A stretch of DNA of 64,000 bases, from positions 1,733,473 through 1,797,472 of the forward strand of contig OY759675.1 in assembly GCA_963662515.1 (NCBI GenBank). The letters run 5' to 3'. Of the stretch, positions 17,519 through 49,205 are shown piece after piece. Position 1 is the stretch's first letter. Each line of letters opens with the position of its first letter. The stretch is from Sedimentisphaerales bacterium. Lineage in GTDB: Bacteria; Planctomycetota; Phycisphaerae; Sedimentisphaerales; SM23-30. The notes beneath the pieces are model-generated. The model did no database searches, was not told where the DNA came from, and was given only the letters and a program-made list of their open reading frames with translations. The position numbers were made by a program, and so were the translations under genes.

Positions 17519-19666
17519 ATGGAGAATACTGCTATGCAGCGTTGTTTATCTGCAATTATAACAGCCGTTTTATTATGCTCTGCCTTTGCCGGGGCACAGG
17601 TTACCCGGTTCGTTGATGTCTTTGTCGGAACTCAGGGAGATCACGGCCAGTTACATCCGGGAGCTACAGTTCCTTTTGGTCTGGTGGTGCTTGGCCCTGA
17701 TACTGATGGCGGCTTACACACCGGCTATGATTATGCCAATGATAATATAAAGGGTTTTTCCCATACCAGAGTGCCTGGTGTCGGCTGCAGTGGGGCGGGC
17801 GAGACTTTGCGGGTTACTCCTTCGCTGGGTAAAAACCTTCGTGATACGATGGATAAGAAAACCGAGGCAGGCTGCCCCGGCTATTATACCGTTACGCTTG
17901 CCAGCGGCATTAAGGCCCGGCTAACCGCCTCGACCAGAGCCGGGTTCCACAGCTATTCGTTCCCGATATCAGATCAGGATATCAATATTCATTTCGATCC
18001 CAGTAAGAGTCTTTCGGGTATTAAAGAATATAACTGGCGGGTAGTTGATAATACTCTTATTACCGGTCTGGTAAAAGCCGGCAATGTCTGCGGACATGGT
18101 TACACTGTGCTGTATTATGCAGTAAGGCTCGAAACTCCGCTGCTGAGCTGGGAAGCTGCCGAGAAAGGACTGTGGTGTAATTTCGGCCGGGCAGATAAGC
18201 CGCGGATCATACAGCTAAAGGTCGGTCTCTCTCCGATCAGTGTCGAACAGGCCATTATTGAAGCTGATAATGATATGCCCGGCTGGGATTTCGAGGCAGC
18301 CTGCCGAAAGGCTGATGCGGCCTGGGAAACCGTGCTGGGTAAGGTTGATCTGGGAGTTGTTCCGGCTGAAATGGAAGAGTTCCGCAACCTTTTCTATACC
18401 TGCCTCTATCGCAGCTATCAGTATCCTAATAATGTTACTGCCAGTAACGGCCAGTATCGCATGGCCGGTGATGAAAACACTATTCGCCAGACGGCAGATA
18501 CCGCACCCGATTATGTTAACTATTCCGGCTGGAGCTCCTGGGATGATTTCCGCAAGTTCAGCCTTATAACTCTGCTCGAGCCGCAGATCGGCCATAATAT
18601 CGCCCGCTCGATCGTAGAATGGTTCGCCGGTGATTCATTTCCTCAATGGGGCAGCGGCTACTGGCCCTCAGCTACGGTTCGTCATGAATTCATCGGTGCT
18701 ATCGTCGTTGATGCCTTCTTTAAGGGGCTCAATGATTATGATCCGGAGATCGCCTATAAAGGTGTGAAGAACACTATAATGGGCAATGACCAGCTTGAGA
18801 AACCCTATCAGTATTATCTGGTAATGAAAATGGCCCGGGCTCTGGCCAAAGACAGCGAGGCAGCCGAATATGAACAAAAGGCGCAGGGTTACAAACAATA
18901 CTGGTGTGCTGAGCAGGTTGATGGCGAAGGTAATGTTCGCGGCTTTTTCACGAGCGATGGTCACAGCGTGCCCCGCGAAAAGGTAAATGAAACTAATGCT
19001 GTCTTTTATCAGGGCAATCTCTGGCATTATCGTTATTGGGTGCCGCACGATATAGATGGTCTGGCCAGATTGCGGGGCAGTAAAACGCTGCTGGCCGATG
19101 ATCTGGAATATTACTTTGCCAATTATCAGCATATACCCCATAATCAGCCGCCGCTGACCTGGCCGTATCTTTTCAATTATCTCGACCGCCCCTGGCGCAC
19201 GCAATACTGGAGCAGACATTTCCTCACTGAGCCCGTTACGGTCATTCACGAAAGCCGCGGTAAGTTTCGCACGCCTCTGTTTGAGCGGGTGATTAAAAAG
19301 TCGCCTGATGGCTATATGCTTACTATGGATGATGATGCCGGGTCCATGGCCAGTAACTTTGTATTCAGTGCGATGGGCCTTTATCCTGCCTGTATGGGTG
19401 AACCCTCTTTCGTCATCGGTTCGCCCTTATTCCCGCAAATGACTCTGACATTGACCGATGGTAAACAATTCAATATTATCGCACGCAACAGTACGCTGGC
19501 CAATAAGTACATCCAGAGTGCCACACTCAATGGTGAACCTTATGATCAATGCTGGATAAACTATAGCGATATTATCAAAGGCGGAACCCTGCAATTCGAG
19601 ATGGGACCAGTCCCCAATTTCGACTGGTCCTTACGCCGCCCCTTGCGCCGGGGGGGCGAGTCTTGA
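17519..19666 (+). CDS. Glycoside hydrolase family 92 (alpha-mannosidase-type), secreted
   Basis: It has a signal peptide (MQRCLSAIITAVLLCSAFAGAQ). GH92 N-terminal blocks are present (FVGTQGDHGQLHPGATVPFG, GFSHTRVPGVGCSG), as is the C-terminal block DDAGSMASNFVFSAMGLYPACMGEPSFVIGSPLF. The last 13 codons overlap a repeat module (see findings). Confidence 0.85.
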   Translation: MENTAMQRCLSAIITAVLLCSAFAGAQVTRFVDVFVGTQGDHGQLHPGATVPFGLVVLGPDTDGGLHTGYDYANDNIKGFSHTRVPGVGCSGAGETLRVTPSLGKNLRDTMDKKTEAGCPGYYTVTLASGIKARLTASTRAGFHSYSFPISDQDINIHFDPSKSLSGIKEYNWRVVDNTLITGLVKAGNVCGHGYTVLYYAVRLETPLLSWEAAEKGLWCNFGRADKPRIIQLKVGLSPISVEQAIIEADNDMPGWDFEAACRKADAAWETVLGKVDLGVVPAEMEEFRNLFYTCLYRSYQYPNNVTASNGQYRMAGDENTIRQTADTAPDYVNYSGWSSWDDFRKFSLITLLEPQIGHNIARSIVEWFAGDSFPQWGSGYWPSATVRHEFIGAIVVDAFFKGLNDYDPEIAYKGVKNTIMGNDQLEKPYQYYLVMKMARALAKDSEAAEYEQKAQGYKQYWCAEQVDGEGNVRGFFTSDGHSVPREKVNETNAVFYQGNLWHYRYWVPHDIDGLARLRGSKTLLADDLEYYFANYQHIPHNQPPLTWPYLFNYLDRPWRTQYWSRHFLTEPVTVIHESRGKFRTPLFERVIKKSPDGYMLTMDDDAGSMASNFVFSAMGLYPACMGEPSFVIGSPLFPQMTLTLTDGKQFNIIARNSTLANKYIQSATLNGEPYDQCWINYSDIIKGGTLQFEMGPVPNFDWSLRRPLRRGGES

Positions 19667-21328: not shown

Positions 21329-23986
21329 TTATTCCGGCATGGGCACGATAAGATTCTCGGGTAATCTCAGTGGTCTGGGTGAATAAAAATATTCCAGTAC
21401 GGAAATGCCATCGCTTATGCCTTTGCATGACAGCGATGTAACTGTATAGCTCATAATTACGCTGTTGGTCAGGCATACTCCAGAGTTTTTAATTGTAAGA
21501 GCCAGAGAATAATTCTCTTCAAAGTCATTTTCCGACCCGGTGGGGTAATTGATTTCATCTTTTACCCCGATCAGCAGATTGGCATCAGACAGAGCCCCGG
21601 CCATTATTTTTTTTGCGTGACCGGCTATTCGCCAGGTACAGTTTTGTATCTCTCCACTTACAGAGGCGCTGGTCAGTGCTATCTGACCGGCAGCATTTTC
21701 CCCATCGAGGTTAATATCTGCTTCAAAATCGCTTTTACAGCTAAGGGTCTTGAGCCATTGGGCGTTGATCTGTGATGATCCGCCGGAGGTCAGCCAGCTG
21801 TTAACTTTTATACTGCTTATCGGCAGAGCCGGGCAAAGCAGGGCGGTATTGTTTATATTCGCTGCGGTGAGGCTGATGGCTGTTTTGGGGTTATCGCTGT
21901 TGCCGGCAATTGATATAACGGCATCTGATATGTTACCGATCATTAGTTTTGTCATTATGCCGCTCACTGTTATGTCGCCGGCCAGGTCGCACTTTTTGGC
22001 ATTAAGGTTGAACGATCCTTCGCAGTTGATATCTCCCAGAATGGTTGTCGCACCCCTGGTTTTGGTCGCTACGGTCAGGGTAGTTGCCGACGAGTTGCCG
22101 ATCAGGTTTATAGTGCTGCGATCCTGAGCTATTTCTCCCTGACCATCTTTCAGGCTGTACTGATTCAGAATACCATTATTATCTATGAGTGTCAGCCTGG
22201 CATTGTTGCGGCCGTTAAAGTTTCCAAATTTCCAGTTTATCTCCTGAACTCCGGCATTAAGCACATTGCTGTTGCTGCTTTCATCTGTCTCATCGATTGT
22301 ATTCTCATAGTCAAGCTGTGCCAGCAGATAGTAGCTACCCGCTTCTATATCTGAAGGAACAGTGTAAGAATACGAGTAGCGGCGGGCGGTTTTATTGTCA
22401 GCCGCCGGGAACTTTAATCGCAGAGCTCGCGGCGTCGTATAGAGCAGGGTATCATCCTGGCTAATATAAGCATCTGCTGAATAATATAACTTTATTCCCA
22501 TTTCGCCAGTCAGTGCCATATCACCATCATTCCTAAGCGTTATAGTGACTTTGCCTTTATCGCCCGGCAGTATCGCTTCCGGGAATTTTATTGCGGCCGC
22601 TGCTTCTCCGGCAATATCTATACCAGAAGGTATCTCAGACACTTCATAACAGCCGATATCAACGAACTTATAGATTATCCGTTCATTGCCGGCGAGGTCA
22701 TAGTTCAGTCCGGCACTAAGGCTGGTTTTGCCTGTATTAAAGCATTGTGAATCTGCGTTTATCTGATAGCTGCCGGACTGGTATAATTCTCCCTGCCATA
22801 TACCTGTTTGTTCAAACTGCGGATCAGTGTCCATATTGCCGCCCCGATTCCGGGCCAGTGAACCTGTTTGCAGATATACATATTCGTTATTAAAGCTTGG
22901 CTCCAGGCCTCCCTGAATAATATTGTGGACATATAACAATAATGAATTCTCGCCGGTTATAGCCATCTCACTATATTGGCCCTCATAACCGTACTGGTCC
23001 TGGCCGACCACATTATTATATATTATGCTGTTTGCCAGCAGCAGTTCGCTATTGGACAGCTTCGCTCCGCCCCCCTGGCTGTTAGTGCGATTTTCAGTTA
23101 TCGTACAATTGATTATCGTATTGTTTTCGGTGCCGCTGCTGAAGGGGCTATTGCCCAGATAAACACCTCCGCCATGACTGTCGGCATAATTTCCTGCTAT
23201 CAGGCTGCTGCTTAGTGTCAGGCCGCTCAGGGTGTCGCCATATAATGCCCCGCCAAAATTACCGGCATAATTACCGATAAAACTGCACCTGTCAATATAT
23301 ACGCCCATAGTATTATCTTCAAACGACAAAGCACCGCCATCGCCTCCCAGGTCATTATCTGAGCTTATATTGTCTGTGAAGCTGCATCCACTTATATTTA
23401 CGGCTATGTTGCCTGTTACCGATATTGCACCACCTGAGACCTCTGCCTGATTAAGATCGAAATCGCAATTGCTTATTAGTACTGCTGAACTGGAACCGCT
23501 TACAGCGACCGCTCCGCCGGTACTGACCGAATAACAACTCGAAAAGCTGCTCTCCTGTATATCAACCGCTGAGTTATTCACCAGAATTGCCCCGCCAATG
23601 GTGTTATAGCCGTTTTTGATAATTATCCGCTTCAGGGTTAACGATGCATTATTTGTGAGATTAAATGCCCGCATATATGACTGTGAGCTTCCTGTACAAT
23701 CTATTGTGACCGGGGCTGCATCATCCGGGCCTTCCGGCCGGATGGTTATAGCCAGACCGCTTATTTCTATATTTACATTACCCGCCGAAGAATAGCCGCC
23801 AGTTCGGGCTGCCAGCACGATCTCATCGCCATTTGTCGCTGCTTCTACCGCATCAGCTATGGTCGGGTAAGCCCCCGGCACATGCAATTCGGCTGCCCGG
23901 GAATAACCGACAGGTATTATAGATATTAAACATATAATCGCTAATAATTGCACAAATCCGACATAAGTTTTTTTTGTTTTTTCCAT
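21329..23986 (-). CDS. Secreted right-handed parallel beta-helix protein with PMP-like (GGA[ILV]) repeats and a CARDB-like domain
   Basis: It has a signal peptide (LLAIICLISIIPVGYSRA). Repeated GGAILV / GGAVAV / SGGAISV / GGALSF / GGALYG / HGGGVYL / GGGAKL motifs occur at roughly 25-30 aa spacing, with FxxN-type partners. A CARDB-like block is present (GKVTITLRNDGDMALTG). Confidence 0.7.
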   Translation of the reverse strand: MEKTKKTYVGFVQLLAIICLISIIPVGYSRAAELHVPGAYPTIADAVEAATNGDEIVLAARTGGYSSAGNVNIEISGLAITIRPEGPDDAAPVTIDCTGSSQSYMRAFNLTNNASLTLKRIIIKNGYNTIGGAILVNNSAVDIQESSFSSCYSVSTGGAVAVSGSSSAVLISNCDFDLNQAEVSGGAISVTGNIAVNISGCSFTDNISSDNDLGGDGGALSFEDNTMGVYIDRCSFIGNYAGNFGGALYGDTLSGLTLSSSLIAGNYADSHGGGVYLGNSPFSSGTENNTIINCTITENRTNSQGGGAKLSNSELLLANSIIYNNVVGQDQYGYEGQYSEMAITGENSLLLYVHNIIQGGLEPSFNNEYVYLQTGSLARNRGGNMDTDPQFEQTGIWQGELYQSGSYQINADSQCFNTGKTSLSAGLNYDLAGNERIIYKFVDIGCYEVSEIPSGIDIAGEAAAAIKFPEAILPGDKGKVTITLRNDGDMALTGEMGIKLYYSADAYISQDDTLLYTTPRALRLKFPAADNKTARRYSYSYTVPSDIEAGSYYLLAQLDYENTIDETDESSNSNVLNAGVQEINWKFGNFNGRNNARLTLIDNNGILNQYSLKDGQGEIAQDRSTINLIGNSSATTLTVATKTRGATTILGDINCEGSFNLNAKKCDLAGDITVSGIMTKLMIGNISDAVISIAGNSDNPKTAISLTAANINNTALLCPALPISSIKVNSWLTSGGSSQINAQWLKTLSCKSDFEADINLDGENAAGQIALTSASVSGEIQNCTWRIAGHAKKIMAGALSDANLLIGVKDEINYPTGSENDFEENYSLALTIKNSGVCLTNSVIMSYTVTSLSCKGISDGISVLEYFYSPRPLRLPENLIVPMPE

Positions 23987-30272: not shown

Positions 30273-30958
30273 TCTCAATTGATTGGTTAATTCAGCAGCT
30301 TTCTGACCTCAGGATAAACAGAGGACGCACCTGATCTTGTTGGATGCTGTCTTGATCTCGCCTTGCATGGCTCTGTTTGTAAATGTTTCTGATATAAAGA
30401 CTTAATGGGATGTATTTTAAGCATTACAGGGCTGTAATCATTCTTGTTTTTTTCCTGAGCTATGTGCCAAAATTCTTTGTTTGAAATTGTTGGTGTATGC
30501 CAATATCTATTATTATCTTATTGCAAGACAGCCAGTTTTCCACAGCAGGTGGCTTTCTGTCTCTAACAGCTGTTCTTCCTTGCCCCCAATAATCCCCGTA
30601 ATCGAGACCGTTTACTCATTATTATGTTATGTGAGATATTCTATTAGCAGATAAATATCTATGGGGCAGTATGCCGGTGAATTATTTATAGGATTTATCG
30701 CTGTCAGGAGAATTGTGTTTTTAGCAAACATATATTTCAAAAATACTTAAGGTCTTGTTTTCCAGGGTATTAGGTTGATATGTTTTGGGTTTTTCATGGC
30801 AGTTTGACTGCAAATACTAATATAACTGTCAAAAATAGCGGAATAATTGTTTTGTTGAGTCATAGATATATGGAGTAGTTAAATGCATCTATTTTATCAG
30901 TGTTATCAGTTTAAATCATTTAGTTATCTGACCTTTAGTATTTGAGACAGGAAATATC

Positions 30959-31501: not shown

Positions 31502-33176
31502 CGAAAATAGCAAAAAATGGCATCGTATGGGCCTGATCCTCCAGAGATCGCTTGAAGGTGATCTGACTCAGCCTGAGAGGTTATGGCTTATATCTGTTTT
31601 GCATTCTGATGCTCAAGCCAGGGAATTTTATATAGGTTTTATGAAAGTGCATTCCGGTTTGCGAATGATATCTGCTGAGATATTACCAGAGACGGCAAGT
31701 AAGAATAATGTAAGTCTCAATGATCTGTTGCAGGGATTGTCAGAATATGAGCAGGAGGCTCCAGAGGCAGTAATTCCCGCGGATACCGAGCCGGTATCGA
31801 CAATAGAGGTATCAGATTTTGGGAGCCGGATTCGCAAAAAGAGTAAGTTGGAAAATCTGCTGCTGTTGGGTTCAATAGCAGCGGTTTTATTGATTGCGGT
31901 GGCCGGAATAATGTTTCCACCTGCTATGGGGCGTGAGGTGGCAACAATTACAGATATGCTCTCAGCTCGTTGGCAGAATAATGGGGTTAAGTATGAACCG
32001 GGTACTAGAATATTCAAACGAGAACGGATGCAATTAGAGGATGGATTAGCCGAGCTGGCATTTGATAATGGAGTTCGTGTAACAATAGAGTCGCCTGCAT
32101 CATTTAAGGTGCGGTCCGATATGCAGATAGATCTGGAATATGGCAAACTGTTTGCTACCGTTCCAGGCGGTGCGTCTGGCTTTACTGTTAAGACTCGGGT
32201 GGCGAAGGTAGTTGATATCGGCACACGCTTTGGTGTAGAAGTTGATAAGGCTGGGGCCGTTTCATTGCATGTAATTAAAGGGCAAACCAAACTGGGTTTG
32301 AACCGCTTCTGGAATAGTGAAAGTGTAGATGTTAATGGTGGTGCTGCCCGCAAGGTATCAGTCAGTGAAGAAATAACAGAAATAAACTGTAACAACAGGC
32401 TTTTTGCTCAGGAGATAAGCTCCCGGAGTAATACGGTCTGGCGAGGAGAAGAGCAGTTAGATCTTGCCGATGTGGTATGTGGTGGGAATGGTTTTAATAC
32501 CGGCAATGCCGAGATGGTTATTGACCCATTAACTGGTGAACTTCAACCATACATGGAGAGAGGGTCGATAACAAGGCGTGCGCAGGCAATATTTTTGCCC
32601 ACAGAGTCTTTAGCTTATGTTGATGGTGTTTTTGTTCCAGATGGTGGCGATGGAGCAATAGAGATAACATCTACAGGCATCAGGTATAGCGATTGCCCAG
32701 ACACATCAGGAGCGACGCGTAAAGATATTACAGTGTTGAATAAGGTATATGATAATGAGGGTGGAGATCTCATTCTGGGAGATTATAAATATGGTTATCC
32801 GTATCGCCCTGCGATATGCATGCAGGCCAATAAAGGAATTACTTTTGATCTTAACGCGATCAGGGCTGATCTGGAAAATGTGGAAATAGAGTATTTTGAA
32901 GCTTTATGTGCTATGGCTTCGCTAGGTACTGCAATGAATACAGGTATGGGGCCTGCTGGTAAGGCAGATTTCAGAATACTGCTAGATGGTGTGGAGCAAA
33001 AGGTTATCAGCGATGTACGCACTGATTTCAGTGAGAAGGTTCGTGTTGATATTGAGCCGGAACACCGGTTTCTTACTATAATGACTACCGATCATCAACT
33101 TAAGGGCGAATCAGATCCGATCGGCTGGGACAGATGTTTTCTGGGTGAGCCGGTATTGGGTTTAAAAAGTAGATAA
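31491..33176 (+). CDS. FecR-family anti-sigma factor with a long C-terminal extension (locus 1)
   Basis: It overlaps the sigma gene by 11 nt. It has an N-terminal anti-sigma helix region, one TM helix (LLLLGSIAAVLLIAVAGIMF), a FecR domain (DIGTRFGVEVDKAGAVSLHVIKGQTKL) and an extra C-terminal domain of about 245 aa. Confidence 0.85.
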   Translation: MMHNENSKKWHRMGLILQRSLEGDLTQPERLWLISVLHSDAQAREFYIGFMKVHSGLRMISAEILPETASKNNVSLNDLLQGLSEYEQEAPEAVIPADTEPVSTIEVSDFGSRIRKKSKLENLLLLGSIAAVLLIAVAGIMFPPAMGREVATITDMLSARWQNNGVKYEPGTRIFKRERMQLEDGLAELAFDNGVRVTIESPASFKVRSDMQIDLEYGKLFATVPGGASGFTVKTRVAKVVDIGTRFGVEVDKAGAVSLHVIKGQTKLGLNRFWNSESVDVNGGAARKVSVSEEITEINCNNRLFAQEISSRSNTVWRGEEQLDLADVVCGGNGFNTGNAEMVIDPLTGELQPYMERGSITRRAQAIFLPTESLAYVDGVFVPDGGDGAIEITSTGIRYSDCPDTSGATRKDITVLNKVYDNEGGDLILGDYKYGYPYRPAICMQANKGITFDLNAIRADLENVEIEYFEALCAMASLGTAMNTGMGPAGKADFRILLDGVEQKVISDVRTDFSEKVRVDIEPEHRFLTIMTTDHQLKGESDPIGWDRCFLGEPVLGLKSR

Positions 33177-33344
33177 TGTTCCTAATGATTAATGTATAAA
33201 TACTGTGGTCATAAGTCTGATCGCGGCAGTTATAGTTTTCTATTTGCGGTTTATTATGCGAGGCAGTTCAGACTGTCAGTGCATTTTGTATTATTAGAAC
33301 TATCTTATTTTGTAATTGCATTTCTGGTTGAATTATTGGCCGGA

Positions 33345-35399
33345 ATGGAGCAGAGGAAGAGAATTTTGAGAAAACTTATAATATTATTTGTATTATTTAT
33401 GGCTTCTTTGAGTTTTGGCGATGCAGTTGTTGTCAATCCAGGATTTGAATCAGTCAGTAACGGTTGGGCGACGAACTGGTCTAAATATCCTGATATTGAG
33501 ACTGATAGTATTTACTATGCCTTAAAGAGTGATAATAAGCATTCAGGTAGTTATTCAGCCAAGATAGCTGCTCGTAATGGATACGGCATGATCTATCAAG
33601 AGGTTAGCAGTGGTTTTAATGTCGGACAGAAGTATTTATTTAGTTTTTACGGATTAGGCGATACCAGTAGCTCCTGGATAATTGATGAGCCGCAAGATCG
33701 AATTGAGGTATATGTAAAATTTGTGAGTTCATCAGGAGCTACAATATCAGAACCATATTCGGTAGTATTTGATGGAAATGATCAGACTGATATACCAACA
33801 CTCAGCAGTAGTCAATGGAAGAAATCGCAGGGTTTTGAGTTCACCATTCCCAATGGGACAGTATCATTTCTCCTGAAGATAGTGGCGGTTGATGGTTCTC
33901 CTGATGGCACTGCTACTGATGGAACCTCTGTGTTGATAGATGATGTGGAACTGTCATTAGTAACTGAATCGGCTACGGACCCTGTTCCAGCAGATGGCAG
34001 TATAAATATAAGTGCGGGAGAAGTGCATTTGAGTTATACGGCAGGTACAGATCCGGCAGGTGGGGGTGGAGTTAATCCTGAGATTACAGGTTATTATATA
34101 TATCATGTTACTTATGATCTTAATGCAGACCCGGGCGTTCCTGTCTTTAGTGCGTATGAATTTAATGCAGGGACAGTATATCCAGAAGGTGGCACTGGGC
34201 TTGTATTTGGTACAAATAAGGCAGTTTACTGGCGTGTTGATGCCAGTATAAATAATTCGGCGGCGGGTTCAGCAGAGACTATTACTGGTCCGATCTGGAA
34301 GTTTACAACAGCGAATTCGAGTATAAATATACTTGGTCCTGACAGTCAGAGTGTATTTGAGGGTGAGTCAGCTGTGTTTTCAGTACAGGCTCAGAGTGAT
34401 ACTGAGATTGTCTGGTATAAGTGGTATGGCCAGTCAGGTACTCTATTATTTGAAGGTGCAACTGCTGCCACATTGACTATTGATGATGCCAGAGTAAATG
34501 ATATTGGCAGCTACTATTGCATAGTAAGAGACCTGAATGGGCAGGAAAAAGCCAGTAGTCCGGCAGACCTCTGGGTATCAGGTATAATGCTACAGTATAG
34601 TTTTGAAGATGGGTTGCTTGATGCTGCAGGCAATTGTTATGGTACATTGCGAAATGCAGTATCAGGTCAGGTTATCTCTGAGAATTATTGTGCGGGAGTT
34701 GACGGCGATGGTATTGTTCTTGATGGAGAGTCATATATCGATCCAGGTGATAGTCTGGTACCAGACAGTGAGATGGGGATTTATGCCGGGACATTTTGCT
34801 GTTGGCTGCGGAGTACTGGTTCTGGTACAGGAGTTTTAGCAGGCTGTTATAATAGTGCAGATCTGAGCTGTTTTAATGTTTCATTGCAATCAGCAGATCA
34901 GGTTTATTTTCATCTTCGTTCCAATGATAATTCTCTGGTACAGCTTCAATTGCCGGTTAATACGGTTAGCGATGGTCAATGGCATTTCCTTGCTGTCAGT
35001 TGGCAGTTAAATGCCTCAGTATTGGTATTATATGATGGTGAAATTATTTGCCAGACGCCCTGGCTGAGTAAAAGAGCTGTTTTTTCTCCCTGGCAGCAGG
35101 TTATGACATTAGGAGCGTTGAACAGAGCTGGGGATAAAGAACACTGTTTCAGCGGTGAATTAGATGAACTTGAATTTTATAATTATGCTCTTAATGGATA
35201 TGAGTTAATTGGATTGTATAATCGCTGGGCCGTTGACCCTGTGAGTATTTGCCTGGATAATTATGCCAGTTGTGCCGATCTGGCCGGTCCGGACGGAATT
35301 GGTGAATCGTATGCAGATTGCCAGGTCGATCTGTACGATTTTGCTGCTCTGGCAGTCAACTGGTTAGAATGTGGATTGTATCCGGTAATTTTAGAGTAG
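33345..35399 (+). CDS. Secreted modular protein P1: CBM4/9-like - WRVD Fn3-like module - Ig (I-set)-like - LamG - dockerin-like tail
   Basis: The start was moved to 33345 to give a signal peptide (MEQRKRILRKLIILFVLFMASLSFGDA). VVNPGFES...NGW opens the CBM-like domain. Other markers are YWRVD...GPIWKFTT, WYKWYG...GSYYCIV, a LamG block (GQWHFLAVSW...LDELEFYNYAL) and the tail DCQVDLYDFAALAVNWLECG. Confidence 0.75.
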   Translation: MEQRKRILRKLIILFVLFMASLSFGDAVVVNPGFESVSNGWATNWSKYPDIETDSIYYALKSDNKHSGSYSAKIAARNGYGMIYQEVSSGFNVGQKYLFSFYGLGDTSSSWIIDEPQDRIEVYVKFVSSSGATISEPYSVVFDGNDQTDIPTLSSSQWKKSQGFEFTIPNGTVSFLLKIVAVDGSPDGTATDGTSVLIDDVELSLVTESATDPVPADGSINISAGEVHLSYTAGTDPAGGGGVNPEITGYYIYHVTYDLNADPGVPVFSAYEFNAGTVYPEGGTGLVFGTNKAVYWRVDASINNSAAGSAETITGPIWKFTTANSSINILGPDSQSVFEGESAVFSVQAQSDTEIVWYKWYGQSGTLLFEGATAATLTIDDARVNDIGSYYCIVRDLNGQEKASSPADLWVSGIMLQYSFEDGLLDAAGNCYGTLRNAVSGQVISENYCAGVDGDGIVLDGESYIDPGDSLVPDSEMGIYAGTFCCWLRSTGSGTGVLAGCYNSADLSCFNVSLQSADQVYFHLRSNDNSLVQLQLPVNTVSDGQWHFLAVSWQLNASVLVLYDGEIICQTPWLSKRAVFSPWQQVMTLGALNRAGDKEHCFSGELDELEFYNYALNGYELIGLYNRWAVDPVSICLDNYASCADLAGPDGIGESYADCQVDLYDFAALAVNWLECGLYPVILE

Positions 35400-37605: not shown

Positions 37606-38286
37606 ATGAAGAAGTTATTTGTAAGTTCGCTGTTGTTTTTGGCCGCAGGTGCTCAGGCTAATCTGATCGTGAATCCTGGTTTTGAGTCTGTTACTGGTGC
37701 AGGCACTTCTGCTTCGCCTTATATGCCTACAGACTGGACAACCTATTATAAGTCTGCCTCTTATTCCGCTGTATTTTTTGCAGCAAAGAATACACCTGTT
37801 TATGACGGTGATTATAGTATGAAGATAGCCGCCAGAAATAGTTATGGCATGATCCACCAGACTGTATCAGTCGTTGCCGGTTCCGAACTTAATCTTTCAT
37901 TTCAGGCATTGGGTGACACCAATGGAGATTGGGTAATGGATGAACCTGGTGATATAGTTGATGTGTATCTGAAGTTCATGGATGCTCAGGGCGCGGAGAT
38001 ATCGCAGCCTTCTTTTGTCGCATTTGATGGCGATGAGAATACTGAAGCTCCGATCCTTTCATCTGCAACCTGGCAGTTATTCAGTAAGGATTTTGTTGTC
38101 CCTGAAAACGCCCAGAGTCTTATGGTAAAGATCAGGGCAGTTGATGGCAGTCAGGGTATTAACGATAAAGATGGTACATCGGTATATCTTGATGCCGTTT
38201 CTTTAACCGTAGTTCCTGAGCCGGTTACTCTGGTTTCACTGGCATTAGGCGCTGTTGGTGTTATGCGTCGTAGAAATATCCGGTAA
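37606..38286 (+). CDS. Secreted CBM4/9-like domain protein with a PEP-CTERM sorting signal (P3)
   Basis: It has a signal peptide (MKKLFVSSLLFLAAGAQA) and a domain highly similar to the N-domain of P2. The C-terminus VPEPVTLVSLALGAVGVMRRRNIR shows a PEP motif, a TM helix and a basic cluster. Confidence 0.85.
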   Translation: MKKLFVSSLLFLAAGAQANLIVNPGFESVTGAGTSASPYMPTDWTTYYKSASYSAVFFAAKNTPVYDGDYSMKIAARNSYGMIHQTVSVVAGSELNLSFQALGDTNGDWVMDEPGDIVDVYLKFMDAQGAEISQPSFVAFDGDENTEAPILSSATWQLFSKDFVVPENAQSLMVKIRAVDGSQGINDKDGTSVYLDAVSLTVVPEPVTLVSLALGAVGVMRRRNIR

Positions 38287-42000: not shown

Positions 42001-42025
42001 AGCCTGGGTAAAAACCAGGCTTTTT
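42001..42025 (+). terminator. Rho-independent terminator ending locus 1
   Basis: AGCCTGG-GTAAAAA-CCAGGCT is followed by TTTTT. Confidence 0.75.
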
Positions 42026-42380
42026 AAATATATTTTCCGATTCCTCCGTTATTCTGTCTAAATCTCAAAGGGTGGATTTCAGACCTATAACTCAGAAATT
42101 CATAGTATGAGAGTGATATTTTTATTATGTTTTATAACTATATTATTGGACTTAAATGATTTGGTGTGGCTTGGGTACGGCATGTCGTAATATCTTGCGT
42201 AAGTATTGTTGGGTAAAGGCATTATGTGTTGTTGTGGTGATAGTGTGCTTTTCAGATCCAGTCTGGTGAATTCTAAATGTTAAAAAAAAGTGCGTTTTAG
42301 TAAACATTTTCAATTTTTATGTTAAAAAAAAGGGTCACAGGGTAATTGCTATAGTGGAAAAGTACGATTGATAGACTATT

Positions 42381-42932: not shown

Positions 42933-44614
42933 TGAAAGACCAGGAATTGATGTTGAAGGTTGCTGATCTTACCTTGCATGCCATGAACGGTACGCTCAGT
43001 CCTGAGCAGTTTGAGCAATTTCAGGAACTATTATCCCATAGTCAGGCGGCACGAGATTGCTATGCTGAGATACTCTGGACTCATATTGGACTGAATTCTA
43101 TGGAGGGAATATCTGGCTTACAGAGATTTGACCAGGGACTCTTGAATGCTATGCTTGAAGACGAGAGTCAGGCTCCTGCAATAGAGCTGAATACTGAAAA
43201 AGCCACTGAGGTGAAAGTCGCAACACAAAATCCGACAGTAAAGTCTGAGCCGGAGTTTTTACGACGGATCAGGCTTGTTATCGTTGCGGCTCTGGCTGCC
43301 GTTCTCATGATCGCCTTGTCGCCTCTTTATATGCCCGGCATGGCCGAAAAGGAAGTGGCCACTCTTACCGATAGTATCGATAGCTACTGGGCCAATATGA
43401 ACGGTGCTATTGCCAAAGGCACCAGGTTTACTGATGGCAGGGGTGTATGGAAGCTGGAGCGAGGTATGGCTCAGATACAGTTTGACTCTGATGTTCAATT
43501 GGTAGTTGAAGCACCAGCAGAGTTTCAGATCCTGGATAGTGACCGGATAAGTCTTGATCGTGGTAAAATCTATGCCGTGGTTGCTCCTAAAGGAATCGGA
43601 TTTACCGTTTTCACTGATAATGCCAGAATAACAGACCTTGGAACTGAATTTGGTGTTGAAGTCAGTGAAAAGCGAGACACTTTGCTGCATGTTATTAAAG
43701 GGCGGACGGTTCTGAAAACTGACAATAGTGCAGAAATTGAAGTAAATAAGGAATCAGCTAAGAAAATAGATAGTAATACCGGTAAGGTGTTTGATATTGT
43801 CTGCCAGGATGATCTTTTTGTCCGCGGTATAGACTCTGAACGGGACATTATCTGGCGTCAGCAGCCGGGGCTTGCTCTGGCAGATATTGTAGCTGGTGGA
43901 GATGGTTTAGGGCAAGTTGGTAAGGCCAGGGTTCTCAATCCGATCGATGCTAAATATCGCGATGCTGCTGATCTGGGGCTTCGCAAACCTAAAGGCATCT
44001 ATAATCTGATGTCAGATTCTCAGTTTGTTGATGGTGTGTTTGTTGTTGATCCCCACAACAGCGAGACAGTGGTAACTTCCAGTGGTATTAAGATAGACAC
44101 ACCTGATCTCGAGGGTGGTATAACTCATGGTATAGTTGCCTTTCGCGGGAAGATACAGGAAAAATTCCCGACTGTTCCCAATGTTGTGATCAATGGCAAA
44201 AGTTATGACAAAAATAATGTGATTATGATCCATAGTAATTGCGGTATAACTTTTGATCTTGAGACAATTCGGAATAATTACCCCGAATATGAGCTTGCCG
44301 GGTTCAGGTCACTGGCCTGTATATCAGAAACACTGGCTTCTCTTACTAAAAGGAAGGCTTTTGTTGACTTTTTCCTTCTGGTTGATGGTGAAGTCAGATA
44401 TCAGGTTATTGGCTTAAATGCTGTCTCTGAGGCTTTGAATGTTGAAGTTGAATTAAACCAAAATAACCGTTTCCTGACTATTATTGTGACAGATTGCCCG
44501 TCACTTTCAGATAGCAATTTCCCACACAACTGCGTCGATAATGATTTCTTTAATCTGATAGATCCTGAATTAGTGATCAAGAATAAATCAAATATTGTCG
44601 AGTACAGCAAGTAA
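42929..44614 (+). CDS. FecR-family anti-sigma factor with a long C-terminal extension (locus 2)
   Basis: An ATGA start/stop overlap with the sigma gene makes 42929 preferred over the ORF-track start at 42893. It has a TM helix (LVIVAALAAVLMIALSPLYM), a FecR domain (DLGTEFGVEVSEKRDTLLHVIKGRTVL) and a C-terminal extension colinear with that of 31491..33176. Confidence 0.85.
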   Translation: MMKDQELMLKVADLTLHAMNGTLSPEQFEQFQELLSHSQAARDCYAEILWTHIGLNSMEGISGLQRFDQGLLNAMLEDESQAPAIELNTEKATEVKVATQNPTVKSEPEFLRRIRLVIVAALAAVLMIALSPLYMPGMAEKEVATLTDSIDSYWANMNGAIAKGTRFTDGRGVWKLERGMAQIQFDSDVQLVVEAPAEFQILDSDRISLDRGKIYAVVAPKGIGFTVFTDNARITDLGTEFGVEVSEKRDTLLHVIKGRTVLKTDNSAEIEVNKESAKKIDSNTGKVFDIVCQDDLFVRGIDSERDIIWRQQPGLALADIVAGGDGLGQVGKARVLNPIDAKYRDAADLGLRKPKGIYNLMSDSQFVDGVFVVDPHNSETVVTSSGIKIDTPDLEGGITHGIVAFRGKIQEKFPTVPNVVINGKSYDKNNVIMIHSNCGITFDLETIRNNYPEYELAGFRSLACISETLASLTKRKAFVDFFLLVDGEVRYQVIGLNAVSEALNVEVELNQNNRFLTIIVTDCPSLSDSNFPHNCVDNDFFNLIDPELVIKNKSNIVEYSK

Positions 44615-44672
44615 GCATGGTATTGTATTTGTGGGTTCTTTTTTTCCAGGGCGTACTTTCTTGAGGACTAAG

Positions 44673-47600
44673 ATGAGAAGAGTAAGTTGGATTTTTCTTT
44701 TATCGTTGTTTTTATCAGACTATTGTCTGGCATTTCTAGCTGCTGATTCACTGGTTATGCATTATGATGCAGCTTCGCTTGCCGATAGCTATGTTAGCGG
44801 CAATAAGGTATCAGTATGGAAAGACAGTTCAGGTCATGGCAATAATGCACTTCAGGACAATGTGTCGGCTCAGCCGGTATATATTGGATCAGACCCGGCT
44901 TTTGATGATCTCCCCGTTCTTCGTTTTGATGGTGATAGCGATTGGCTAAAACTGTCATCAACAGCCATTAATGTCAGTTCTTATACAATGTTTGCGGTTG
45001 CCAGGCATGCCCGGATCGATCAGGAACAGTATATAATTGCTGGTCAGAATGGCGGCGGCGACAATCGCGCCAGAATGGGTATTGACCATGAGGGTAAGTT
45101 TGTCTGGCGTGCCGGCAGTTCAGATGTTGTTACTTCTGAAGCTGATACCAGGGTGCATATTTTTGCTGCTACCTCCGAGTTAGAGGCCTATCTTGATGGG
45201 AGACCAGTTGCCAGCAATGCCAACAGCTCTCGTCAATATCCGGCATCATTCAATCTGGGTTCATACAATCGAGGAGAAAAGGCATTCTTTTTAGGTGATA
45301 TCGCTGAAGTTATAGTTTTTAACCGTATTCTTACAGGCAAAGAGCTTAATGAGATCGGCTCATATCTGGAGGCGAAATATGGTCTTGATACTATTTACCG
45401 CCAAAAAGACAAGCATGTTATCGGTGTTTCACCATCTGACCAGACTTTCAATGTAGCTTTGGATAAGGTGCTTAGCTGGGAGGCTCCAGTTGGTGTGGTA
45501 AATCCTGCCTATAATGTTTATTTTGGGACAAATAAGGCCAAACTTGAGCTGGTTGCCGAAATGCAAAGTCAGACGGTTCTGGACCCATTTGGTCAGGCAC
45601 TGCTGGAACCTGGTCAAAGATATTACTGGAGAGTTGATATTGAAGGGATTGCTGATAAGGGTAATTTATATTCGTTTGTTACCAGAGAATCAGAGTCTGG
45701 ACAGTCAGCAAGACAGCTTCCTCCAGATATGTCCGATCTGTCTGGGAATAAAGACTCTGTCGGCGGTAATACTATTGTATCCAATAAGCCAGTTGAAGAT
45801 GGTTTTGCTATTGTGGCCGGAGGTCAGGTTTGTAATATATATGTTGATGAAAATGACTACGAGGTTTGTCGTCTGGCTGCTGATTTGTTGGCAGGTGATA
45901 TTGAGAGTGTTTGTGGTATAAGGCCGCAGGTTGTTAATGATCTGAAGTTGGCTAAATCTGATAATGTTATAATTATTGGTACATATAAACGCAGTAAGGT
46001 CGTAGATCAACTGGTGGAAAATGCCAGGATCAGTATTAAAGATATTGCAGGGCAATGGGAAACCTTTGCTCTGGAAACTGTTAATTTTCCACTTGATAAT
46101 GTTAAAAATGCATTGGTGATTTATGGTAGTGACAGACGCGGTACGGCTTATGGTGTTGTTGAACTCTCAGAAAAGATAGGTGTTTCACCCTGGAATTGGT
46201 TCTCAGATGTTCCGGTAAAATATCAGCCTGAATTATTTGTTCGTAGCGGCAGATTTAAACAGGGACCACCTTCGGTTAAATATCGTGGATTCTTTATCAA
46301 TGATGAAGACTGGGGACTGCATCCCTGGGCCAGATATACTTATTCACCCGAAGAAGGTAATATTGGCCCTGAGGCTCATAAAAGAATCTTTGAAATGATG
46401 TTAAGGCTTAAGGCCAATTATCTCTGGCCGGGAATGCACAGATGTACTAAGGCCTTCCATGCCTTTGCTGAAAATAAAGTGGTTGCCGATCAGTATGCGA
46501 TAGTTATGGGGTCTTCTCACTGTGAGCAGATGTCCAGAGATAATGAATGGGAATGGTATCGCTGGAGTCCTAAAGATGGCTCTGACAGAGGTGCATGGGA
46601 TTGGTGTACTAATTCCAATACTCTTATTGAGTATTGGCGTGATGCTGTCGCAGCAAATGGTCAATATGAGAATGTTTATACGACCGGTATGCGTGGCATA
46701 CATGATAGTGGTATGCCTTGTTCTGGTGCTACCAATGCACAGAAAGTACTTGCTATGCAGAATGAAGTATTCCCGGCACAGAGGAAAATGATCTCTGAGC
46801 TGGTGAATCCTGACCCAAGCAAAGTACCTCAGATATTCTGTCCTTATAAGGAAGTGCTTGGTTTGTATGATCTGGGCATGGATGTGCCGGATGATATTAC
46901 CCTGGTATGGCCAGACGATAATTATGGCTATATTCGCAGATTGTCTAATACGAAAGAACAAAGCAGATCTGGTAGTGCCGGAGTTTATTATCACTTCTCA
47001 TATCTGGGCCCACCAGAGGATTATCTCTGGCTCTACTCTACTCCTCTTGGTCTTATCTGGGAAGAGATGGTTAAGGCATATCAGTATGGAGCAGACAGAG
47101 TCTGGGTGTTTAATGCCGGAGATATTAAGCCGGCAGAGCTGGGACTGGACTATGCTATGCGTCTGGCCTGGAACATAGATAATTTTTCTCATGACAATAT
47201 CAGAGAATATCTCGAATTGTGGGCCTGGCAGCAGTTTGGCGTTGAACAGAGAAAAGAAATTGCTGATATATTGATCGAATATTTCCGATTGGCGCAAAAT
47301 CGTAAGCCAGAGCACATGTCATCTGGTGGATTTACATTTTCTATGACAGAATATGGAGATGAAGCCCAGAAGAGATTGCAGCAGTACGCCAATATTACTG
47401 ACAGAGCCAATAGTGTTTATGATAAACTGCCTGCAACCTGTCGTGATGCATTTTATCAACTGGTATTGTATCAGGTTCGCTGTGCTGATCTTATGAACCA
47501 GAAGATAATCAATGCCCACAGGAATATATATTACGCATCGCAGGGGCGTGTTTCTGCCAATTATTATGCGCAACTGGCACATAAGGCCTACGAGCAGATA

Positions 47601-49205
47601 ATTGCCGAGACCGATCATTATAATAATGTTATGTCAGATGGTAAATGGAAGTATGTAATGAGTTGGCAGCCTCGCCATATAGCTCCTTACTACAGGCCGG
47701 CAACTATTACTGTTGCACCAGATGGTCCTGCCAGTATGGGTGTAATTCTGGAAGGTCAGAGTAAGGCAATTACTGATACTCCTGTTGTTGGTGTTCCATA
47801 TTCTGATAATTTTGCTGATGGCTCAGCAGCCAACTGGCAGCCCTATAACCCAGGTCGCTGGACAGTCAGAAACAATGGCGGCATTAGTGAATTTGCGATT
47901 CAAGATGGTGATTATGATAATCGTTCAGGTGGGCGTCTGGGCGAGATTGCATTATTGCGAGATAAGATGTATGATTATTTTAACTTCAAGACAAAAGTAC
48001 GCCTTTGTGACAGAATGGAAGGTAACAGTTCAGCTGATGCCGCTGTAGTCTTTGGTTATCTTAATGAGATGAATTATTATTATTTTATTCTCAGCAGTAA
48101 AGATGTAACTAAAAACTCTTACGGTAGTGATACTGTTCTATTCCGGGTAGTAAATGGTGTCAGAGCTCATGTCCGTAGTTTCAGTCTGGCTGTCAGAGAT
48201 AATGATTATCATGACCTTGAGTTAGTAAATGATAAAGATGGACTGACAATCATTGTTGATGGTACAAATCTTGAGCACATTGCTCAGCGGTTCCCAGCTG
48301 GTCAGATCGGTATTGGTTCATATAATGATACCGCTGCATTCGCAGATGTTAAGATCGAACCAATCGTTGCTGATGATGTACTTGATATTCTTCCGGTATT
48401 TGATGTTTATACAAAAAACAGCCATTTTATTGATATTTACAATAAGGGCAAAGGGACATGTGACTGGTCTGCAACTGCTTCTGAACCATGGGTTAAACTG
48501 GACAGTACCTCTGGTAAGGTTGATTCTCAGCAGCGTGTCTGGGTTAGTCTTGATTGGTCTGCTGTGCCAGTTGGTACAAGCACCTCAGTTATTACTATAG
48601 CTGGACCAGATGGTAATGTTAGTGTAAGGCTTAATGCATTTAAGCCGGCTTCACCTGAGCCTGACCAACTTGATTGTGTAGTTGAATCTAATGGTTATGT
48701 AAGTCTGGAAGCAGAAAATTATACCAGGAAAACTGATCGCAATGGTGCTGCCTGGCAGGTTATTGATTCCTTTGGCAGTACCGGTGACACACTTACGGTT
48801 TTACCGTTTGATACCGCCAGTTGCAGCGATAGCACTAAGCTGTTGTCCCAAAGTCCTTCAGTGGAATATGATATGTATCTCTGGAGTTCTGGTCAAAAAG
48901 ATATCACTATCAGGGCAATACCTACTCATCCAATCAATTCAGAAATGAAGTTGAGATATGCTATAGCCTTTGACGACCAGCAACCGGTAATTGTTGATTA
49001 CGGTACACGGGAATGGTCACCTAAATGGTATCTTAATGTTTTGCAGGGTATTACTTTATCAACTGCCAAACTTAATATCGATCAGGCGGGTAAACATACC
49101 CTCAAAATCTGGATGGTAGATCCTGGTGTTGTACTTGACAAAATCATTGTTGGTAAGGCTCCTGTGAGCCATATGGGTCCTCCGCAAACAAATGTAATCA
49201 GATAG
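44673..49205 (+). CDS. Secreted LamG - WRVD module - glycoside hydrolase family 115 (alpha-glucuronidase type) with an inserted concanavalin-like (DUF1080-like) domain (P5)
   Basis: The start was moved to 44673 (MRRVSWIFLLSLFLSDYCLAFLAA). GH115 blocks are ALVIYGSDRRGTAYGVVELSEKIGVSPWNWFSDVPV, SVKYRGFFINDEDWGLHPWA, LRLKANYLWPGMH and VMGSSHCEQM. The N-terminal LamG is paralogous to that of P6. Confidence 0.85.
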   Translation: MRRVSWIFLLSLFLSDYCLAFLAADSLVMHYDAASLADSYVSGNKVSVWKDSSGHGNNALQDNVSAQPVYIGSDPAFDDLPVLRFDGDSDWLKLSSTAINVSSYTMFAVARHARIDQEQYIIAGQNGGGDNRARMGIDHEGKFVWRAGSSDVVTSEADTRVHIFAATSELEAYLDGRPVASNANSSRQYPASFNLGSYNRGEKAFFLGDIAEVIVFNRILTGKELNEIGSYLEAKYGLDTIYRQKDKHVIGVSPSDQTFNVALDKVLSWEAPVGVVNPAYNVYFGTNKAKLELVAEMQSQTVLDPFGQALLEPGQRYYWRVDIEGIADKGNLYSFVTRESESGQSARQLPPDMSDLSGNKDSVGGNTIVSNKPVEDGFAIVAGGQVCNIYVDENDYEVCRLAADLLAGDIESVCGIRPQVVNDLKLAKSDNVIIIGTYKRSKVVDQLVENARISIKDIAGQWETFALETVNFPLDNVKNALVIYGSDRRGTAYGVVELSEKIGVSPWNWFSDVPVKYQPELFVRSGRFKQGPPSVKYRGFFINDEDWGLHPWARYTYSPEEGNIGPEAHKRIFEMMLRLKANYLWPGMHRCTKAFHAFAENKVVADQYAIVMGSSHCEQMSRDNEWEWYRWSPKDGSDRGAWDWCTNSNTLIEYWRDAVAANGQYENVYTTGMRGIHDSGMPCSGATNAQKVLAMQNEVFPAQRKMISELVNPDPSKVPQIFCPYKEVLGLYDLGMDVPDDITLVWPDDNYGYIRRLSNTKEQSRSGSAGVYYHFSYLGPPEDYLWLYSTPLGLIWEEMVKAYQYGADRVWVFNAGDIKPAELGLDYAMRLAWNIDNFSHDNIREYLELWAWQQFGVEQRKEIADILIEYFRLAQNRKPEHMSSGGFTFSMTEYGDEAQKRLQQYANITDRANSVYDKLPATCRDAFYQLVLYQVRCADLMNQKIINAHRNIYYASQGRVSANYYAQLAHKAYEQIIAETDHYNNVMSDGKWKYVMSWQPRHIAPYYRPATITVAPDGPASMGVILEGQSKAITDTPVVGVPYSDNFADGSAANWQPYNPGRWTVRNNGGISEFAIQDGDYDNRSGGRLGEIALLRDKMYDYFNFKTKVRLCDRMEGNSSADAAVVFGYLNEMNYYYFILSSKDVTKNSYGSDTVLFRVVNGVRAHVRSFSLAVRDNDYHDLELVNDKDGLTIIVDGTNLEHIAQRFPAGQIGIGSYNDTAAFADVKIEPIVADDVLDILPVFDVYTKNSHFIDIYNKGKGTCDWSATASEPWVKLDSTSGKVDSQQRVWVSLDWSAVPVGTSTSVITIAGPDGNVSVRLNAFKPASPEPDQLDCVVESNGYVSLEAENYTRKTDRNGAAWQVIDSFGSTGDTLTVLPFDTASCSDSTKLLSQSPSVEYDMYLWSSGQKDITIRAIPTHPINSEMKLRYAIAFDDQQPVIVDYGTREWSPKWYLNVLQGITLSTAKLNIDQAGKHTLKIWMVDPGVVLDKIIVGKAPVSHMGPPQTNVIR

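Follow-up and report, generated by a model that had tools for sequence, protein, structure and literature searches.

Two sigma/anti-sigma gene pairs in the window

The 64,000-nucleotide stretch analysed here (contig OY759675.1, positions 1,733,473 to 1,797,472 of the forward strand, Sedimentisphaerales bacterium assembly GCA_963662515.1; hereafter the window) carries two gene pairs, each encoding an extracytoplasmic function (ECF) sigma factor and a FecR-type anti-sigma factor (proteins 1 and 2; coordinates of all features in Table 1), and our subject is the C-terminal module with which both anti-sigma factors end. The start of anti-sigma gene 1 overlaps the stop of its sigma gene by 11 nt, and the junction of the second pair is an ATGA overlap. 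Each pair heads a run of genes on the same strand: unit 1 consists of sigma factor, anti-sigma factor, two Ig-LamG proteins, a PEP-CTERM protein with a CBM4_9-like domain and an FAD-oxidoreductase-Ig-LamG fusion, and unit 2 of sigma factor, anti-sigma factor, a GH115 enzyme and an Ig-LamG protein.

A first-pass annotation, made from the letters alone, had claimed that both anti-sigma factors continue for about 245 residues beyond the FecR domain and that the two extensions are colinear. This was borne out by the Pfam limits of the FecR domains and by a colinear alignment of the two proteins over 527 aa (31% identity, E 3e-64); the first extension is as described, except that the start given for it, 32440, lies one base out of frame, the in-frame start being 32439. 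The motif blocks quoted in that annotation were all located, in protein 1 (among them LADVVCGGNG at 32463-32492, VDGVFV at 32619-32636, GITFDL at 32835-32852, ILLDG at 32976-32990 and RFLTI at 33066-33080) and, as counterparts, in protein 2, and because they are near-invariant columns of a large family they are not chance resemblances between two paralogues. The exact sequence of protein 1 is present in public data (P0170).

Both proteins are members of the FecR-domain anti-sigma family: in each, PF04773 scores above its gathering score, an ECF sigma gene adjoins and there is one transmembrane helix, which among the relatives of these proteins is found at about aa 125 in 181 of 182. The N-terminus lies inside and the module outside the cytoplasmic membrane. 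The FecR domains contain the motif D(I/L)GT(R/E)FGVEV, in which each of D, G, T, F and G reaches 90% conservation or more across the 182 full-length relatives, and which by its sequence and position appears to correspond to the Gly-Thr bond that is self-cleaved in E. coli FecR and Pseudomonas FoxR. Twin-arginine export (Tat) of the kind used by E. coli FecR was considered as a family trait and rejected, since an RR motif precedes the transmembrane helix in just 41 of 181 relatives, although protein 2 itself has LRRIR there. A further open reading frame (ORF) of 561 aa at 12142-13827 was considered as a third anti-sigma gene and likewise rejected; it encodes a PMT_2 glycosyltransferase and has CheW upstream.

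A CBM51/NPCBM-like module at the C-terminus

Direct scans of the window proteins passed threshold for FecR only, so that a family had to be assembled before the extension could be assigned. No Pfam family scored above its cut-off in the C-terminal 245 or so residues of either protein, and an NCBIfam scan of the two gave nothing useful. Protein 2 taken alone produced a sub-threshold match to Pfam NPCBM (13.6 bits, E 0.071, aa 420-525) and protein 1 alone produced none; both window proteins are below the PF08305 gathering score of 23.9 bits, which, for each protein read singly, speaks against the assignment reached below. When the extension of protein 1 was used as the query, 23 relatives were recovered, many of them with a precomputed PF08305 match, and this set together with both window sequences made up an alignment of 25 members (A1). 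Of these, 19 matched Pfam NPCBM/NEW2 at E values up to 0.01 (best 1.5e-14), which is the outcome of the profile comparison that the first-pass annotation had proposed; FecR was also present in five members and PEP-CTERM in four. Relatives score 25-41 bits against PF08305, and those that pass its gathering score alongside FecR have 31-41 bits; PF04773 and PF08305 are both precomputed in about 35 of 119 full-length relatives.

The A1 profile was then searched against all PDB sequences, where it matched Clostridium perfringens ZmpB with CBM51 modules (7js4, E 4.5e-14) and the CBM51 of GH95 (2vmh/2vmg, E 5e-5), CBM51 being a family of carbohydrate-binding modules (CBMs). In these alignments the family motif HAnkGITFDL pairs with h.(s/n)(s/a)e(i/y)vY(s/d)L of the CBM51 chains, so that GITFDL stands opposite (V/I)Y(D/S)L; F..vvGv pairs with F(E/e)..VGVD; dfwvlvDGe with (i/s)F(k/e)V(l/y)(v/l)D(G/n)E, vlvDG standing opposite VLVDG; RFLTLvttDggd with (e/t)LKL(i/v)V(n/k)D(a/g)GD; and lDqiifgdPrL with sDH(a/g)sFGDAKL. 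This is the order of conserved features by which the first-pass annotation had recognised an NPCBM-like layout. It had named a known STN-interacting FecR C-terminal domain as the assignment that would tell against its reading; Pfam, at E values up to 0.1, matched only FecR and NPCBM in these proteins and no such family.

Structure prediction gave the same answer for both proteins. The AlphaFold2 model of protein 1 (aa 305-561) had a predicted local distance difference test (pLDDT) value of 86 and a predicted template modelling score (pTM) of 0.88, and that of the entire periplasmic portion of protein 2 (aa 140-561, from a 104-sequence alignment) had a pLDDT of 92.9 and a pTM of 0.88. In Foldseek comparison with the PDB, the twelve best matches of the protein 1 model were all CBM51-containing chains (eleven titled CBM51, plus 8pvs_A), with 2vmi, 2vmg and 2vmh at E about 3e-7 and a target-normalised template modelling score (TMt) of 0.64, covering about 140 of 146 residues; the protein 2 model matched 2vmg, 2vmh and 2vmi at TMt 0.65-0.67. 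Taking both proteins together, the top matches were 2vmi, 2vmg, 2vmh, 7jrl, 2ygm and 2vng (E 3e-7 to 1e-5), and on the single-module chains 2vmi, 2vmg, 2vmh, 2vng and 2vnr the TMt was 0.58-0.67. The beta-sandwiches of CBM4, CBM6 and CBM61 were about 1,000-fold worse than CBM51. The other result that the first-pass annotation had named as fatal to its idea, a structure search yielding no CBM-like beta-sandwich, thus did not arise. The protein 2 model also matched the anti-sigma structures 4m0n (BDI_1681; rmsd 2.7 over 130 columns) and 6ovk (PupR), a match of about 130 columns that we read as the FecR part because the Pfam FecR domain occupies aa 182-259 of this protein. The NPCBM-like reading is therefore upheld by the family's Pfam matches, by the profile-to-PDB matches and by the two models with their CBM51 neighbours: the C-terminal module is homologous to CBM51/NPCBM, and it very probably replaces the STN-docking C-terminal domain of other FecR proteins.

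The module is larger than its structural relatives. The Pfam and PDB sequence matches begin at about profile position 132-142 and so cover only the back half, whereas the front 125 or so residues hold the family's least variable columns (LDLADVVGGGNGxGTG, FVDGVFVPDG and cP.T); LDLADVVGGGNG and FVDGVFVPDG, the most invariant motifs of all, fall within an extra stretch of about 100 residues. Since the models are single and compact (both at the pTM given above) and the Foldseek alignments cover nearly the whole of the 146-residue CBM51, these 100 or so residues are best taken as a family-specific elaboration. The beta-sandwich and the run of motifs that opens with the (V/I)Y(D/S)L strand and closes with D...F.D...L at the C-terminal end are shared with the CBM51/NPCBM-NEW2 modules of C. 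perfringens GH95, GH98 and ZmpB and of Streptococcus pneumoniae GH98, which are the best structural matches; unlike those modules, however, the ones described here carry the additional residues with LDLADVVGGGNGxGTG and FVDGVFVPDG, and are borne by a regulator or a PEP-CTERM anchor rather than by a glycoside hydrolase or peptidase. As CAZy's working definition requires a CBM to be appended to a carbohydrate-active enzyme, the window modules fall outside it. No catalytic domain was fused to the module in the inspected matches, and a search with the front half only, for other architectures, yielded short proteins and no enzyme fusions. One of these, P0285 (locus L081), had been considered as a standalone module and proved to be a frameshifted anti-sigma fragment in an ENA assembly, and the other short front-half matches may be of the same kind. 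Genuine standalone forms do exist as surface proteins consisting of a signal peptide, the module and PEP-CTERM (P0006, P0012); they keep all of the invariant motifs, which indicates that the motifs are a property of the module itself rather than of a contact surface with FecR. Four longer proteins (P0057, P0058, P0068 and P0112; 786-859 aa) have an insertion of about 230 aa, with no Pfam match, between the front and back halves of the module.

Family distribution, conserved neighbourhood and candidate signalling route

When 1.84 billion cluster representatives (50% identity clusters) were searched exhaustively with the profile, 2,782 matches to the module were returned at E<1e-3 and 1,391 at E<1e-30; the best 150 were mostly 550-650 aa long, with the module at the extreme C-terminus. 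In a scan of one genome per GTDB species, more than 551 module-encoding loci were found, and the best 80 of these lay almost all in Phycisphaerae (Sedimentisphaerales, Anaerohalosphaeraceae) or in bins labelled Pirellulales or Planctomycetota, and individual genomes carried several paralogues. The closest species-representative locus was that of the Anaerohalosphaeraceae metagenome-assembled genome OY775912, with 60% identity over the C-terminal module. Relatives are annotated as 'FecR domain-containing protein' and a few as 'NPCBM/NEW2 domain-containing protein', names which indicate that annotation pipelines have already met the architecture; Pfam NPCBM covers only the back half of the larger conserved module, and most members consequently bear the FecR name alone. 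No description of it turned up in a literature search that paired NPCBM or CBM with anti-sigma, FecR, Planctomycetes, Phycisphaerae or Kiritimatiella. The genome papers on Sedimentisphaera and Kiritimatiella reportedly mention many ECF/FecR pairs near glycan-degrading genes. The family bears on the means by which Planctomycetota, and above all the anaerobic, polysaccharide-specialised Sedimentisphaerales and Anaerohalosphaeraceae, sense glycans and induce their large sets of glycan-degrading genes.

Gene context was compared in 80 related loci and the window, which together contain 86 module-bearing ORFs. All 86 also carry the FecR/N-terminal part, and an ECF sigma gene lies immediately upstream in 79, five of the seven exceptions starting within about 300 nt of a contig end. 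The first downstream gene most often encodes LamG_3 (38 of 66) or Ig_3 (22 of 66), followed by N_methyl, the prepilin-type N-terminal methylation motif (14), and PEP-CTERM (8), with GH115, GH31, RGL11 and CBM96 appearing occasionally; at the second downstream gene, LamG_3 (22 of 51), Ig_3 (17), PEP-CTERM (8), FAD_oxidored (7) and Golvesin_C (7) recur, and GH94, GH97, GH106 and arabinofuranosidase are also seen. A gene for an Ig-LamG protein adjoins the anti-sigma gene on its downstream side in 35 of the 68 loci that could be evaluated; counting the first three downstream genes raises the figure to 48 of 68. These proteins (median 707 aa) are secreted, have a Cys-rich dockerin-like tail (…CxVDLxDFAxLAxxWL), and combine a variable N-terminal domain with a constant Ig-LamG-tail part; this conserved family of about 700 aa could be the regulon's main product or its signalling partner. 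The first-pass annotation had remarked on a missing transducer, and indeed no TonB-dependent receptor, Plug or STN family was matched in the scanned ORFs of the window or among the 25 most frequent downstream Pfam families of the related loci.

E. coli FecR is cleaved between Gly181 and Thr182. The C-terminal fragment so produced remains attached, preventing further proteolysis in the Fec system until it is taken away by FecA and TonB; a sigma-activating fragment is thereafter released by RseP (PMC12036975). In clostridial RsgI, autoproteolysis and C-terminal carbohydrate-binding modules convey polysaccharide signals (PMC10328401, PMC6852018). Judged from sequence, models and analogy, direct glycan sensing by the anti-sigma factor, which the first-pass annotation had proposed, would be the best-supported mechanism for the window pairs. 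In each pair, an ECF sigma factor and a single-pass anti-sigma factor of the FecR type would act together as a switch, the STN-docking subdomain of the latter having been exchanged for a CBM51/NPCBM-type sandwich; the module would bind an oligo- or polysaccharide reaching the periplasm, and binding would release or destabilise the self-cleaved C-terminal fragment, whereupon site-1 and site-2 (RseP-type) proteolysis could attack the stump left beside the membrane. The freed sigma factor would then transcribe the adjacent Ig-LamG, PEP-CTERM, FAD-oxidoreductase and GH115 genes, and ligand binding by the built-in CBM would stand in for the TonB/FecA pull of the Fec system. The neighbouring secreted lectin-like and carbohydrate-active genes and the conserved gene order count in favour of the model, and we lean slightly towards it as a whole, that is, towards a direct glycan receptor that drives proteolytic release of the sigma factor.

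The known systems each share part of this design. With FecR, PupR and FoxR (E. coli Fec, Pseudomonas) the window proteins have in common the translationally coupled ECF sigma gene, the single-pass topology with cytoplasmic N-terminus, a periplasmic PF04773 domain that matches 6ovk and 4m0n, and a G-T motif at the position where FecR and FoxR are self-cleaved; they differ in having the CBM51-like module instead of a C-terminal STN-docking subdomain, in that no nearby gene for a TonB-dependent transducer was found, and in the scarcity of the twin-arginine motif among relatives. The STN-docking domain and a TonB-dependent transducer in the locus, both defining for cell-surface signalling, are lacking, and whereas the neighbours of the Fec system concern iron, those of the window pairs concern glycans. 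Like the RsgI proteins of Clostridium thermocellum (with C-terminal CBM3, PA14 or GH10-like domains), they are membrane anti-sigma factors with an extracytoplasmic C-terminal module of CBM type, with many paralogues per genome, each presumed to regulate glycan-degrading genes. The autoproteolysis and subsequent RseP cleavage of RsgI (PMC10328401, PMC6852018) would be a further point in common. RsgI, however, has a SEAL-type domain with an Asn-Pro cleavage site rather than FecR with G-T, partners SigI rather than an ECF factor (Sigma70_r2/ECF), and belongs to Gram-positive hosts, so that the likeness is one of functional analogy only. In polysaccharide utilisation loci of Bacteroidota, signals travel by way of the STN domain that a SusC-like TonB-dependent transporter carries, and the FecR protein has a C-terminal docking domain. 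There too a FecR-type anti-sigma factor controls glycan-utilisation genes, and its FecR domain matches that of the window proteins (4m0n, BDI_1681), but both the signalling through an STN transporter and the FecR docking domain are missing from the window pairs. By analogy, the proteins may be described as a FecR-type switch inside the membrane with an RsgI-type CBM sensor outside it.

Several observations weigh against direct glycan sensing. Mean pairwise identity across paralogues is 37% for the module, 35% for the FecR scaffold and 21% for the sigma-binding N-terminus, and module sequence entropy is only slightly higher in the loops; a module more divergent than the scaffold, which we had looked for as a sign of diversified ligand specificity, was not seen (0.37 against 0.35 identity), and it is the family-specific part that holds the most invariant residues. 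For such uniform conservation and invariant family motifs, a single ligand or partner shared by all would be at least as good an explanation as a range of glycans. RsgI paralogues, moreover, use different sensor folds, while here every paralogue has the same CBM51-like module. Nor does the Fec pathway necessarily hold in its particulars, given how few relatives have the twin-arginine motif. At 30839-30863, about 100 nt upstream of sigma gene 1, there is a candidate ECF-type promoter, CGGAATAA-N14-GTCAT, with a similar box in the best related locus (L001) and GTGAAAA-N16-GTCTT boxes in other related loci, but the CGGAATAA-N14-GTCAT box is not repeated before the downstream genes and its frequency in the window is no higher than expected by chance. 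Finally, the conserved Ig-LamG gene behind the anti-sigma gene mirrors the order fecI-fecR-fecA.

This last point bears most directly on a credible, if unlikely, alternative, in which the module is a protein-docking domain and it is the downstream Ig-LamG protein, or else a neighbour of PEP-CTERM or pilin-like type, that captures the glycan and passes the signal on to the anti-sigma factor, the Ig-LamG partner being a non-TonB counterpart of the FecA transducer. Apart from the frequency and the fec-like position of the Ig-LamG gene, a variable N-terminus joined to a constant Ig-LamG-tail part would be in keeping with a sensor that varies and a docking surface that does not, as would the uniform conservation of the anti-sigma module across paralogues. 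However, the module also occurs without FecR in the standalone PEP-CTERM forms, about 30% of the evaluable loci have no Ig-LamG gene nearby, and the closest fold relatives of the module are all sugar binders; the signal peptides and dockerin-like tails of the Ig-LamG proteins also suggest an extracellular site, probably beyond the reach of a periplasmic domain.

The same uniform conservation, with motifs invariant over hundreds of paralogues, and the surface anchoring of the standalone versions by PEP-CTERM could instead be explained if the module bound a glycan of the cell's own envelope (peptidoglycan, lipopolysaccharide or exopolysaccharide) and served as an anchor or a sensor of envelope state rather than of nutrients. 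We regard this as improbable, since dozens of paralogues per genome, with differing glycan-degrading or lectin-like neighbours, would make little sense for one envelope signal, and since the sigma-binding N-terminus is the part that diverges fastest, as would be expected of many insulated switches with different triggers. The suggestion that the NPCBM likeness is a chance motif match and the extension an unrelated or disordered tail, to which the missing Pfam match of protein 1 and the low score of protein 2 might lend colour, is refuted by the agreement of the family Pfam matches, the profile-to-PDB matches and the two confident models with CBM51 as best match, as well as by the 1,391 cluster representatives that match the family profile at E<1e-30, and its probability is negligible.

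If direct glycan sensing holds, it is possible, and we put this forward tentatively, that the module constitutes the main polysaccharide-sensing logic of anaerobic Phycisphaerae, with dozens of TonB- and transducer-free ECF/FecR pairs per genome, whose built-in periplasmic receptors would capture imported glycans and, on binding them, pull the G-T self-cleaved anti-sigma factor apart so that intramembrane proteolysis begins. The pairs would then be the planctomycetal equivalent of the SusC-coupled ECF systems of Bacteroidota, convergent with clostridial RsgI. The family ties a recognisable sugar-binding fold directly to a sigma-factor switch, and forms a natural experiment in FecR-type signalling without TonB and FecA. 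The soluble module of 245 aa is a tractable candidate sensor, and the more than 551 loci, lying beside their presumed target genes, offer a route to regulon prediction.

Genes of the two units and of the remaining window

The features of the two units are collected in Table 1. In the first Ig-LamG protein of unit 1 the N-terminal domain opens with NPGFE (CBM4_9-like), and the true start of the gene is likely to be an internal Met at about 33345. The three Ig-LamG proteins have an N-terminal domain paralogous to that of the small PEP-CTERM-anchored protein of the same unit (local hidden Markov model, E 3e-61). The recurrence of FAD_oxidored second genes (7 of 51 loci) suggests an unexplored redox step in glycan loci. 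In unit 2, the TTG start listed for the GH115 gene overlaps the stop of anti-sigma gene 2 by 20 nt, and its true start may therefore lie further downstream. Terminator-like hairpins follow 37469 and 41958, the latter lying, with the T-run behind it, at about 42001-42036.

Table 1. Positions of the genes, domains and motifs of the two sigma/anti-sigma units in the window.
Feature	Position	Strand	Remarks
ECF sigma factor 1, 180 aa	30959..31501	+	Pfam Sigma70_r2 1.2e-9, Sigma70_ECF 1.6e-4
FecR-type anti-sigma factor 1 (protein 1), 561 aa	31491..33176	+	Cytoplasmic N-terminus, one transmembrane helix, FecR, CBM51-like C-terminal module
Single transmembrane helix, protein 1, aa 123-141	31857..31913	+	Kyte-Doolittle maximum 2.75; basic RIRKKSK before helix
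FecR domain (PF04773), protein 1, aa 185-265	32043..32285	+	32.4 bits against cut-off of 24
DIGTRFGVEV G-T motif, protein 1	32214..32243	+	Position of FecR/FoxR self-cleavage site
C-terminal module, protein 1, aa 317-561	32439..33173	+	CBM51/NPCBM-like beta-sandwich with family-specific elaboration of about 100 aa
Ig-LamG protein with Cys-rich dockerin-like tail, secreted	33192..35399	+	LamG_3 6.8e-11, Ig_3 6.8e-7; adjoins anti-sigma gene 1
Second Ig-LamG protein, 653 aa	35508..37469	+	LamG_3 1.4e-21
Secreted protein, 226 aa: signal peptide, CBM4_9-like NPGFE domain, PEP-CTERM anchor	37606..38286	+	
FAD_oxidored + Ig + LamG fusion, 1200 aa	38356..41958	+	PF12831, E 6e-94; last gene before sigma gene 2
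ECF sigma factor 2, 183 aa	42381..42932	+	Sigma70_r2 1e-8, Sigma70_r4 3.6e-6
FecR-type anti-sigma factor 2 (protein 2), 561 aa	42929..44614	+	FecR 29.1 bits against cut-off of 24
Transmembrane helix, protein 2, aa 116-134	43274..43330	+	Hydrophobic helix; LRRIR precedes
FecR domain, protein 2, aa 182-259	43472..43705	+	Includes DLGTEFGVEV at 43634-43663
C-terminal module, protein 2, aa 307-561, CBM51-like	43847..44611	+	AlphaFold2 model and Foldseek
GH115 (alpha-glucuronidase family), 1536 aa, N-terminal LamG	44595..49205	+	Glyco_hydro_115 8e-125, GH115_C 8e-44; directly downstream of anti-sigma gene 2
Third Ig-LamG protein, 740 aa	49426..51648	+	LamG_3 3e-32

Elsewhere in the window, an IS256/Mutator-family transposase is encoded at 56451-57716 (PF00872, E 1.6e-117). 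Three further genes, which add glycan and surface functions, lie outside the two regulated units: one at 14464-17055 for a sensor protein of the Cache-PAS-DUF294 nucleotidyltransferase type, one at 17519-19666 for an enzyme of the GH92 alpha-mannosidase family, and one on the minus strand, at 21329-23986, for an 885-aa surface protein of the CARDB / PMP-repeat type.

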